DNA from: an uncultured delta proteobacterium
GTDB taxonomy: Bacteria; Myxococcota; Myxococcia; Myxococcales; Anaeromyxobacteraceae
Direction of reading: 5' to 3'
DNA length: 64,000 nt
NCBI GenBank assembly: GCA_963814585.1
Contig: CAWFDF010000008.1
Coordinates: 128,001 to 192,000, forward strand
Shown: positions 31,501-34,500 of the stretch, in pieces
Layout: each line of letters begins with the position of its first letter
Position numbering within the stretch: the stretch's first letter is position 1
Position numbers: made by a program

Positions 31501-34500
31501 CCACGCTCAGGGGTCACTCGCGGGGACCTCGCCGCAGACGCAGCCCGGGAGCCGCTGGGTGGCTCGGAGGGTGGGGACGCCCCGGACCACGTCGATCCGC
31601 CGGCCCTCCTTCGCGTCCGGCTCGACCAGCAGGCGCAGCAGCTCCTGGGCGGCCAGCGAGGCCAGCGCCAGCGCCCCTGGCACGGGCGGGCGCCCACCCG
31701 CGGCGGAGAAGCGCCCGCAGGCAAAGCACGGGGCGCCGGGCGGGACCGAGACCACCTGGCCCGCCTCCCCGTCCAGCTCCAGGACCACGTGCGGGATCCT
31801 CGCGCGGCGCGCCACCTCGGCGGACGCCAGACCCTCCGCCGACGCCGAGGCACAGATGAGCGCCGCCGTGGGCACGGCACCGGCCGGGTACGGGCGCGCC
31901 GAGACGAAGCGGGACAGCGCGCCGAGCGCCGCCGCGGCCGCCCGCGCCCTCGGCTGCCCGACCTCCTCCGGCCGGTAGAGCCAGCCCGCCTGGTCGGCCG
32001 GTTCGAGCACCTCCGGATCGTCGATCCAGATGGTGCCGACGCCGGCCTGGGCCAGCGCCACCAGCGCCGGCGTGGCCACCCCGCTGGCACCGACCATCCG
32101 GATCCGGGCCGACATCAGCCGTTCCTGGCCCGCAGCCCCGAAGCCGGGGACCAGCAGCTGGCGCGCCCAGCGCGCGATCCGCTCGGCGTCGAGCTCCGGC
32201 GCGCCGCCGGCGATGGCCGGCACCAGGCAGATCCGGTCTCCGTCGCGCACCGGCGTGGCCAGGCCGCCCAGCTCGCGCAGCTCCTCCTCGCCGAGGAACA
32301 CGCCGACGTGGCGGCGCACCCGTCCGTCCTCGTCGAGGAGGCGCTGGCCGAGCCGCGGGTGGGCGTGCGCCACCTGGCGAAGCACCTCGCCGACGGTGGC
32401 GCCGACCGCCGTGAGCTCGGCCTGGCCACCGGCCAGGTCGCGCAGCGGCGCGGGGACGGCGATGATCACGGGCATGGGCTCGGCCTCACGGCAGGTCCAG
32501 CGCCGCGCGCGGCGCCCCCTTCTCCAGCACCAACTCCCACGCGCCCGGACCCTGGTCCTCGAGCGGCTCCATCGAGACCACCCGGTGCCCCTCCTCCGCC
32601 GCGCTGGCCGGGACGCTCCTCAGCGGCTCCCCCTCGCGCAGCAGCACCACCACGCGCTCGCCCGGCCCCACCCTCTCCAGCGCGATGCGGGTCTTCACCC
32701 AGGTGATGGGGCAGCTGTCGAGCCGCACGTCGATCATCGCCGAGGCGATCCGGGGCGGCTTCATGGCGCCGGTTCCCTGGCGGCCGGTGCGCAGGCGGCC
32801 GGCCTGCTCGGCTCGAGCGGCTGCGTGCCGGCGCAGGCCGGACAGCCGGGGCGGCGCCGGACCAGCACCAGTCGGCCCCGGCCGGTGCGCGCCTCGAAGA
32901 CCAGGAGCCGTCCGGCGTAGGCGCCGCGCTCGCCGGCCAGCAGGCGCAGCGCCTCGGCCCCATCAGGCCCCCGGCGAAGCCGGCCAGCGCGCCGACGATG
33001 CCCGCCTCGGCGCAGGAGGGGACCTGGCCGGGCGGTGGCGGCGCCTCGAAGAGGCAGCGGACACAGCCCGAGAAGCCGGGGACCACCGTGAGGATCTGGA
33101 GCGAGGTGCGCAGCACGCCGCCGTGGACCAGCGGCTTGCCGGCCCGGAGCGCGGCGTCGCTGGCGAGGAACTTGGTGGGGAAGTTGTCCGAGCCGTCGAG
33201 CAGCACGTCGACGCTCGAGGCCAGCTCGACCGCCTCCTCGGTGTCGAAGCGGCGCCCCAGGGGGACCGCCTGGAGCGCCGGGTGGAGCGCGCGCAGCCGG
33301 GCCGCCGCCACCGCGGCCTTGGGCTGGCCCAGGTCGGCCTCGCCGAAGAGCGGTTGGCGGTTGAGGTTGGAGGTCTCGACCACGTCGTCGTCGATCACCA
33401 GCAGCCGGCCGACACCGCCCGCCGCCAGCGCCAGCAGGGCCGGACCGCCGAGGCCACCCGCGCCGATCACCAGCGCGCTCTTGTTCGAGAGGTCCATCCG
33501 GGCCCGGTCATAGCCCGCGTGCCGGGGTGGGGCAATGCCGAGGACCCGTGCGGAGGGACGGTGCCGGGCCTCGGCGCCTAGAACGACAGCGCCCGGCCCT
33601 GCTGCGCCAGGCGCCACAGCGACGGCAGCGGCTCCAGCCCGTCGAGCCTCGTGCGCACGGCCTCGGGCTCGAGCCCGGCCAGCCGCACCGCCGTCTCGCA
33701 GGCCACCACCCGCAGGCCCAGCTCGCGCCGGGCCTCGGCGAGCGTGGGCTCCAGCGGAGGGACGCGCGCCCCGCTGGTGGTCGGCGGCGCCCCCTCCTCG
33801 AAGCGGCCCTCGACGAAAGCGCGGAGCGGCTCGAAGGCCAGGACCAGCGTGACCGGGTCCCCCAGCGAGGCGGCGGTGACGCCGAGCATGACCGCCTGGT
33901 AGCGCTCCGGCCAGCCGCGGCCGGAGAGGAAGATGACGAGCGGTCGGGACATGGCGGGCCTCCGGGGGCGGCCATTCTACCTTCGAATGTCGCGCCGCCA
34001 TTTCGCCCCGGACGCGCTCGCCCGCGCTTGCAGCCACCCCGGGCCTCTGCTACATACCGACCCCGCTTCGAGCCCAGGTGGTGGAACTGGTAGACACACC
34101 ATCTTGAGGGGGTGGCGCCGTAAGGCGTGCGGGTTCGAATCCCGCCCTGGGCAATCAAGCGAAAGGGACCCGGCCAGCGCCAGGTCCCTTTTTTCTGCTC
34201 GCCGCCCGGCGGCTCGCCTACCTGGCGGGCGCGGGTGCGTGCGCGGGCGCAGGCGCCGCCGGGACGGGAGCCTGGGCCGGGGCGAACGGCGCGGCCGGGG
34301 CCGCCGGAGCCGGCGCGGTCGGGGCCGCCGCCTCAACGGCGTCGAGCACCGACTTGGTCTTCGACGAGTTGTAGGCCAGCGTGAGCGAGGTCAGCATGAA
34401 GATGAAGGCGCTGACGCTGGTCACCTTGCCGAGGAAGGTCTGGGCGCCGCGGCCGCCGAACACGGTCTGCGCGCCGGCGCCGCCGAAGGCGGCCCCCATT

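Follow-up and report, generated by a model that had tools for sequence, protein, structure and literature searches.

A helix-less and an ATP-less ThiF/MoeB paralogue of Myxococcota as likely subunits of a one-site adenylating enzyme that is composed of two chains

The analyzed stretch of DNA (the window; 64,000 nucleotides of contig CAWFDF010000008.1 from an uncultured delta proteobacterium of the Anaeromyxobacteraceae) encodes two ThiF/MoeB paralogues, E1a and E1b, with complementary losses. E1a has the ATP site and lacks the N-terminal helix with the arginine finger; E1b has this helix and is devoid of the ATP and catalytic motifs. Sequence, selection and a competition model together indicate that E1a and E1b likely form a heterodimer. 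We consider it probable that this heterodimer is an adenylating enzyme of two chains and one site, which derives from MoeB/ThiF and has a sulfur-carrier role, and in which E1b is helpful without being strictly required.

All genes of the locus are located on the minus strand of the window in the order dsrE-like, E1a, tusA, thiS-E1b fusion, JAB, APS-kinase-like gene and larE. The first ORF (33578..33952) codes for a small DsrE-like protein of 124 aa with a single Cys in the motif ACE. It has no match in Pfam or NCBIfam; an Atlas feature score of 0.95 connects it to a cluster with 22% DsrE members, and it is a possible sulfur carrier. A dsrE-like gene also occurs upstream of E1a in most Anaeromyxobacteraceae loci. 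The E1a gene (32761..33497) starts with the ATG at 33497, and its stop overlaps the start of tusA in the sequence ATGA. The TusA/SirA sulfurtransferase (32486..32764) contains a CPIT motif and matches Pfam PF01206 with an E value of 1.8e-14. The next ORF, 32475-31507, begins with a ThiS/MoaD (SAMP1-like) beta-grasp domain (32200..32475; Pfam PF02597), which is fused in frame to E1b (31507..32199; aa 93-322 of the ORF), as the initial annotation had stated. The ThiS domain, with an NCBIfam SAMP1 match slightly below the cut-off, ends in AGG; its Gly-Gly is at aa 90-91 and E1b is fused behind. The desampylase-like JAB/Mov34 metalloprotease (31071..31517) has an HSH motif and matches Pfam Prok-JAB; its GTG start overlaps the stop of E1b. 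A second frameshift, in JAB, was considered and ruled out by the in-frame GTG at 31517 and by a contig that spans the site without a gap. The neighbouring adenylyl-sulfate-kinase-like gene (30258..30956) matches Pfam APS_kinase and is under the cut-offs of NCBIfam. The larE sulfur insertase gene (29354..30214; TIGR00268 above cut-off) is a conserved neighbour. E1a and E1b themselves are two separate genes and belong to a conserved housekeeping region that is flanked by secG and truA.

E1a is not one open frame in this assembly. A one-base slip in a G run at about 32957-32961 of the minus strand shifts the last 65 codons; the shifted segment carries the Zn pair CPAC and the stop codon at 32763-32761. 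Near-identical contigs from X1 and X2, two runs of one study that possibly represent the source sample and do not count as independent, have one extra base at the slip site. Because of this extra base, and because the stop in the second frame overlaps the start of tusA, the frameshift is probably an assembly error. Both E1a and E1b are whole in 64 of 70 Anaeromyxobacteraceae loci; the six loci that were dropped are the present one, two others in which E1a is also frameshifted and three that run into the end of a contig. The intact cognate pair of locus L002 (87% and 81% identical) stood in for modelling.

The sequence of E1a contains the motifs GAGGLG, SNLNRQ, DGSDN, CVRC and PSC as well as K60, D104 and Cys162. 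Its first frame matches Pfam ThiF above the cut-off, with 183 bits on the first 178 aa, starting from model position 17. The N-terminus is only a few residues ahead of the first beta-strand, and the E1a family profile aligns E. coli MoeB from residue 29 onward. This confirms that E1a keeps the ATP motifs and yet starts at the first beta-strand, as had been proposed. The reported absence of the N-terminal RYxRQ helix with the arginine finger also holds, since none of the 64 E1a proteins from intact Anaeromyxobacteraceae pairs has the motif; in this survey the first residues were checked and the upstream frames were also read for the loci other than L057-L064. The full set of ATP motifs (GxGGxG, NLxRQ, Lys, Asp) is present in 56 of the 64 proteins, and eight have lost ATP motifs. 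The description of C162 as invariant was overstated; this residue is present in 54/64 family E1a and in 54/56 of the live ones.

E1b shows the reciprocal losses. The protein has an RWARQ helix and four Zn cysteines in the motifs CFAC and CVC. The position of the P-loop reads GASGVA, the NLxRQ motif and the Mg-binding (catalytic) Asp are gone and the loop with the catalytic Cys is deleted. The E1b of a relative, modelled with AlphaFold (pLDDT 87.5), has its best fold match with ThiF at a TM score of 0.78. The earlier view of E1b as a protein with the RxxRQ helix and without ATP and catalytic motifs is borne out by the related sequences: NLxRQ occurs in 0/64, 0/26 and 0/30 E1b, and a GxGxxG-type match in 2/64. 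In family E1b, R10 is present in 64/64 proteins and R13, which aligns with MoeB Arg14, in 62/64. The only two E1b without R13 both adjoin an ATP-dead E1a (2/8 versus 0/56; these are few and related cases). The four Zn cysteines, which had been called invariant, are all present in 64/64 family E1b; this invariance does not extend to a second class (the class of a Polyangia genome), where 16 of 22 E1b have no CxxC/CxC at all. E1b proteins vary in length between 94 and 247 aa, and in 30 diverse E1b over this range invariance is limited to R13, Q25 and one Gly. The smallest E1b retain the N-helix and two helices of the modelled interface.

Both E1b and E1a are under purifying selection; a simple Nei-Gojobori count in five small groups with high GC gave dN/dS values of 0.10-0.28 for E1b and 0.06-0.24 for E1a. 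The long branches and heavy deletions of E1b could be taken as signs of a decaying pseudogene-like duplicate. The dN/dS values of 0.10-0.28 largely refute this idea, and E1b is kept across two classes; in the family, 79 of 92 genomes gave a hit over its full length at E<=1e-41. We consider decay scarcely credible.

Complementary losses, i.e. a helix-less E1a next to an ATP-less E1b, were found in all 64 intact family pairs; the loci were chosen by E1a or E1b score, and the related genomes are not independent. Seven extra copies are adjacent E1a-E1b pairs, which were duplicated away from the main locus. Identical proteins are also recorded for cultured Anaeromyxobacter dehalogenans and Corallococcus. 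The initial annotation had also postulated a conserved operon dsrE-E1a-tusA-thiS/E1b-JAB. This gene order is present in the window, but in 66 family loci with full flanks ThiS occurs in only 10 and is absent in 56; JAB occurs in 26, namely in all 10 with ThiS and in 16 without it. The complete set of six genes is therefore not typical of the family. A tusA gene lies no more than 2.5 kb from E1b in 55 of the 66 loci, and fusions of both kinds, TusA-E1b (P0024, P0027) and E1a-TusA (L187), tie TusA to both chains. The ThiS-E1b fusion exists in 10/70 family loci, all of them from the genus of this contig. A search for a cognate ThiS elsewhere in the genome found none in three of five family genomes. 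A cysM-like gene is absent at this locus; the best genome matches here and in five relatives are 33-42% identical. Most Anaeromyxobacteraceae have a live E1a-tusA-E1b core without ThiS or an operon cysM, a point for which the proposed pathway does not account.

The complex was modelled with two copies of E1a and one of E1b, which placed E1b in competition with the second E1a for the dimer face. In the models E1b took this face in 3/3 runs and displaced the second E1a. The median score was 0.84 compared to 0.00 for the best of three controls; the runs agreed in at least 90% of the contacts, and the partner pLDDT was at least 83. The score mark is reached by 116 of 157 solved and by 2 of 215 mismatched pairs and is only roughly valid for the present three-chain complex, which is unlike the calibration set. 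According to the model, residues 6-20, 44-53 and 172-189 of E1b contact the first E1a copy. The modelled interface includes E1b residues 9-14 and E1a residues 42-49 (SNLNRQ loop), and the E1b segments with predicted contacts are those that the smallest E1b retain. Because MoeB and ThiF dimers are solved, the model may have passed as a result of its likeness to these structures. An inactive paralogue that is modelled on the dimer face could also serve as an inhibitor or dial, which pulls E1a from a homodimer with two sites and cuts its activity by half or gates it; such a tuning role is speculated for yeast Tcd1 in the available part of PMC13139853. An inhibitor would have no need to keep the catalytic Arg, and the two genes are translationally coupled or adjacent, so that their products are probably made together. 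We regard a role of this kind as very unlikely.

The split is also present outside the family. Among 20 regions from other families, which were chosen by E1a score, three contain an ordinary MoeZ, one (L184) a single whole MoeB in the same operon and 15 a helix-less E1a. One region (L193) is ambiguous, with a shortened N-terminus of E1a and no E1b found; it was counted in neither group. All 15 helix-less E1a are followed downstream by E1b, and 6 of the 15 loci have a cysM-like gene. In 40 regions from the second class we found nine ordinary proteins and 31 helix-less E1a. E1b is encoded in the same locus in 24 of the 31 cases and on another contig in two; in five cases it was not found. The usual gene order in this class is cysK-E1a-(thrC)-thiS-E1b-cysM-JAB, with ThiS in 26, a cysM-like gene in 22, a thrC-like gene in 12 and JAB in 24 of the 31 loci. 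The E1b proteins outside the family were detected solely via E1a loci; a search of 401 genomes with the family E1b profile, considering the best seven candidates each, gave no orthologue outside the family.

The five genomes with a helix-less E1a in which E1b was not found fall into a single clade that lies within the paired E1a (SH 99, quick tree). E1b was found in these genomes neither by profile (at most 150 candidates per genome) nor by Pfam search. In the E1a of this clade P-loop, NLxRQ, Lys, Asp and Cys are all intact, and four of the five genomes keep thiS-cysM-JAB. A full MoeZ is present in all five, with the motif RYSRH in the two that were read. In the available text of a paper from 2026 (PMC13139853) the arginine fingers MoeB Arg14 and ThiF Arg11 are reported as not essential, and the mutation R59A in Tcd1 lowers the activity by only 26%. 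Excerpts of further studies report that the short form of UBA5 activates UFM1 without the N-terminal extension of residues 1-56 (PMC2888440), and that UBA3 activates NEDD8, albeit slowly, without APPBP1 (PMC6031683). Because one clade keeps E1a alone and because the arginine finger is reported as non-essential, a strict dependence of E1a on its partner is not supported. The proposal of a two-chain E1 with one site in the initial annotation is upheld by the losses, the pairing, the selection and the competition model, but not with respect to the necessity of pairing.

The partner-less clade, the non-essential finger and the activity of short UBA5 and of UBA3 without APPBP1 would all be compatible with E1a as a solo homodimer without a finger; E1b would then be a separate binding or regulatory protein with a ThiF fold, which is kept in the operon. 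We judge this to be unlikely. It leaves unexplained that the trans Arg is the one residue always retained by E1b next to a live E1a, and that tiny E1b keep just the dimer helices; also the displacement of the second E1a in all model runs stands against it. A strictly obligate heterodimer in the manner of SAE1/SAE2 is a stronger form of our explanation, which draws on the same evidence; in this case the partner-less clade would borrow the helix of MoeZ or have an over-diverged E1b. The near-universal co-occurrence, the full MoeZ in all five partner-less genomes and the dependence of Tcd2 solubility and activity on Tcd1 (PMC13139853, in part) speak in its favour. Considering the five genomes without E1b and the non-essential finger, we regard obligate pairing as possible, yet rather doubtful.

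The explanation that we prefer, a split enzyme with a helpful partner, would have its origin in a MoeB/ThiF homodimer, from which duplication and complementary loss generated the E1a/E1b pair with one active site. E1a would bind ATP together with the Gly-Gly tail of a ThiS/MoaD-type carrier and adenylate this tail. E1b, in its modelled position on the dimer face, would lay its N-terminal Arg, the equivalent of MoeB Arg14, on the phosphates of ATP and could in this way take part in catalysis. It probably stabilises and accelerates E1a and would not be strictly needed. A persulfide of TusA, perhaps via DsrE, would convert the carrier adenylate into a thiocarboxylate. We infer TusA/DsrE as sulfur donor because the E1 is without a rhodanese domain, and because row 4e in the accessible part of Iyer 2006 links SirA likewise. 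The neighbouring genes of the wider operon suggest that a CysM-like or ThrC-like PLP enzyme uses the thiocarboxylate for the synthesis of a sulfur amino acid, and that JAB may release the product as in the mycobacterial MoeZ/CysO/CysM/Mec system. In the ThiS-E1b fusion of this genus JAB would cut after the Gly-Gly; a precedent for such a cleavage is described for MoaD-MoaE in the available part of PMC8832034. By analogy, the context points to sulfur-carrier chemistry of the CysO/CysM/Mec type.

A different output of the enzyme would be the conjugation of the SAMP1-like protein to target lysines, similar to sampylation or urmylation, with JAB as a de-conjugating protease, especially where cysM is lost. 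This question concerns the output and not the dimer, and conjugation could coexist with the heterodimer. ThiS scores as SAMP1 and JAB as desampylase-like, Cys162 is kept in nearly all live E1a (54/56), and loci of the Corallococcus type have thiS and JAB without a cysM orthologue. The neighbours TusA, DsrE, cysK/cysM/thrC and APS kinase, in contrast, indicate sulfur transfer. Most family loci have lost ThiS, and among the ORFs that were read in the examined loci no E2 was noticed, although no genome-wide search for one was made. Conjugation appears improbable to us.

The best sequence and fold matches of both subunits are the homodimers of E. coli MoeB and ThiF (PDB 1JW9, 1ZUD), which have the same Zn site. 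These enzymes have two identical chains and two sites, whereas E1a/E1b are two genes with one site. MoeB Arg14, the counterpart of E1b R13, acts on the ATP of the neighbouring chain according to the available part of PMC13139853; this trans action now has a literature source. The same text describes yeast Tcd1-Tcd2, which is like E1a/E1b a heterodimer of the ThiF family with one active centre, and in which the inactive paralogue supplies the arginine finger (Tcd1 Arg59). Unlike E1a/E1b it is a eukaryotic tRNA dehydratase with no sulfur carrier, and a loss of the finger in the active subunit is not mentioned in that part of the paper. In bacteria, BilD of the BilABCD system is a pseudo-dimer of IAD and AAD that has one site, to which the IAD contributes Arg9 (PMC10557695, in part). 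BilD is, however, one chain with a CYS domain, which cooperates with an E2 in anti-phage conjugation, while E1a/E1b are two genes without a CYS domain and with metabolic neighbours. The BilABCD-type combination of a single-chain IAD-AAD with CYS domain, an E2, a Ubl and a defence operon does not apply to E1a/E1b.

SAE1/SAE2 and NAE1/UBA3 are, like E1a/E1b, E1s of two chains with the Arg from the inactive chain, which in our case is deduced from sequence and model. The match of the E1b profile begins at position 3 in SAE1 and at position 10 in NAE1, but only at positions 23-25 in SAE2/UBA3. FCCH, SCCH and UFD of the SAE/NAE systems are missing here, and the matches of E1a/E1b are far weaker than to MoeB/ThiF. 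Each chain measures 230-250 aa and can be aligned with MoeB/ThiF over its whole length, without catalytic-Cys half-domains and UFD. What the pair has in common with SAE1/SAE2 is the architecture, probably through convergence: ThiF/MoeB are the closest matches of both chains, and the examined loci gave no sign of an E2. Of the eukaryotic-type IAD/AAD split that had been proposed, the asymmetry remains on the basis of sequence and model; the likeness concerns the architecture only, and there are precedents for such a split, within a single bacterial chain in BilD as well as on two chains in Tcd1-Tcd2 and SAE/NAE.

The wider operon resembles the mycobacterial MoeZ-CysO-CysM-Mec system with an E1, a beta-grasp carrier, JAB and a cysteine synthase (PMC3227635, in part); E1, Gly-Gly carrier and JAB are found together at the present locus. 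The sulfur-metabolism operon of type 4e (Iyer et al. 2006, in part) shares with it the rhodanese-less E1, SirA/TusA and the APS kinase. In the available parts of these two sources a single complete E1 is described and an inactive partner unmentioned, while E1a/E1b is a split pair. Other bacterial E1-like proteins (MoeB/ThiF/Cap2) are described as homodimers in the accessible text of PMC10557695, and the available parts of two reviews (PMC12355090, PMC11354881) do not mention a two-gene bacterial pair. No report of a two-gene bacterial ThiF/MoeB pair was found in the open-access literature. Such a pair may be mentioned in the survey by Burroughs, Iyer and Aravind from 2009, which deals with the E1-like superfamily.

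Two loci from Nitrospirota have the gene order moeB-thrC-thiS-NIL-moeB, in which both MoeB have helix and ATP motifs as far as read; one locus (L167) is whole and continues with JAB, the other (L168) is cut. This order suggests the state before the split. A descent of E1b from the second Nitrospirota MoeB received no support from a quick tree, in which this copy groups with the MoeZ-type and the E1b branches are long. A single clade of helix-less E1a was not rejected (p-AU 0.33, with L224 and L227 left out), and a second origin of the split, considered for L192, is neither supported nor rejected.

We see about an even chance that the pair is a two-gene bacterial one-site E1 that arose independently of eukaryotes, that it occurs in at least two classes of Myxococcota and that a living series leads from whole MoeB to partner loss. 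As part of the same reading, the series would comprise one whole MoeB, two whole copies as in Nitrospirota, the split pair, a 94-aa partner with little beyond an arginine finger on two helices, and finally the loss of the partner. If true, it would illustrate the evolution of IAD/AAD asymmetry, and the output of the enzyme would be sulfur transfer or SAMP-like conjugation. The canonical eukaryotic E1s are asymmetric, and E1a/E1b would represent a small natural two-chain version of this state; it makes testable what the purpose of the inactive half is, given a non-essential Arg, and how little of it suffices. The results also correct the annotation of the E1b proteins, which are labelled as adenylyltransferases despite the missing site.

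The E1a-E1b pair, in which E1a keeps the ATP site and E1b the N-terminal RxxRQ helix, occurs as a second copy at several loci of the Anaeromyxobacteraceae. In five of these second copies (L033, L038, L039, L040 and L041) the ATP motifs are gone from E1a too; the Zn cysteines are retained in all four of the pairs that were aligned. The large adjoining gene is a multicopper oxidase at L033 and L040. These second pairs would be doubly dead ThiF dimers, perhaps with a role in metal binding or as a scaffold. At L038, L039 and L041 the adjoining large gene was judged by eye to be multicopper-oxidase-like, and a CusB-like efflux gene is mostly also present beside the five pairs.

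The second pairs of L032 and L070 have a partly degenerate E1a and lie close to moeA (at L070 identified by eye), hinting at recruitment to molybdopterin synthesis. At L053 and L054 it is the main locus that carries a degenerate, ATP-dead E1a, as if the live E1a had been replaced by a dead copy; JAB, cysC and larE are present there.

Outside the family, five loci from the class of a Polyangia genome (L236, L238, L239, L240 and L231) form one clade with a helix-less E1a, and profile and Pfam searches of their genomes found no E1b. The clade is a natural experiment on whether E1a acts by itself or in combination with MoeZ. At L192 (genome G114) E1a, E1b and tusA are adjacent, and one tree groups its E1a with whole MoeB proteins; the split may have arisen a second time here. 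A Nitrospirota operon (L167:5351-9349) has two whole MoeB genes flanking thrC-thiS-NIL, followed by JAB, with a second thiS and cysK upstream.

The APS-kinase-like protein of the window (30258-30956) scores below the NCBIfam cut-offs and has a Lys/Ala-rich C-terminal tail, which recurs in distant loci. Immediately upstream of the operon, on the opposite strand, is a tRNA-Leu(GAG) gene (34072-34153). At several distant loci secG and E1a are separated by inserted, unrelated genes.

A third ThiF-family gene in the window, TcdA-like by sequence (about 54060-54810, minus strand; G000:C8:182048-182809), has no relation to the E1a-E1b pair. Elsewhere in this genome two further genes, for PLP-enzymes (G000:C14:567895-573892), are seemingly split across frames, and the assembly therefore contains other indel errors.
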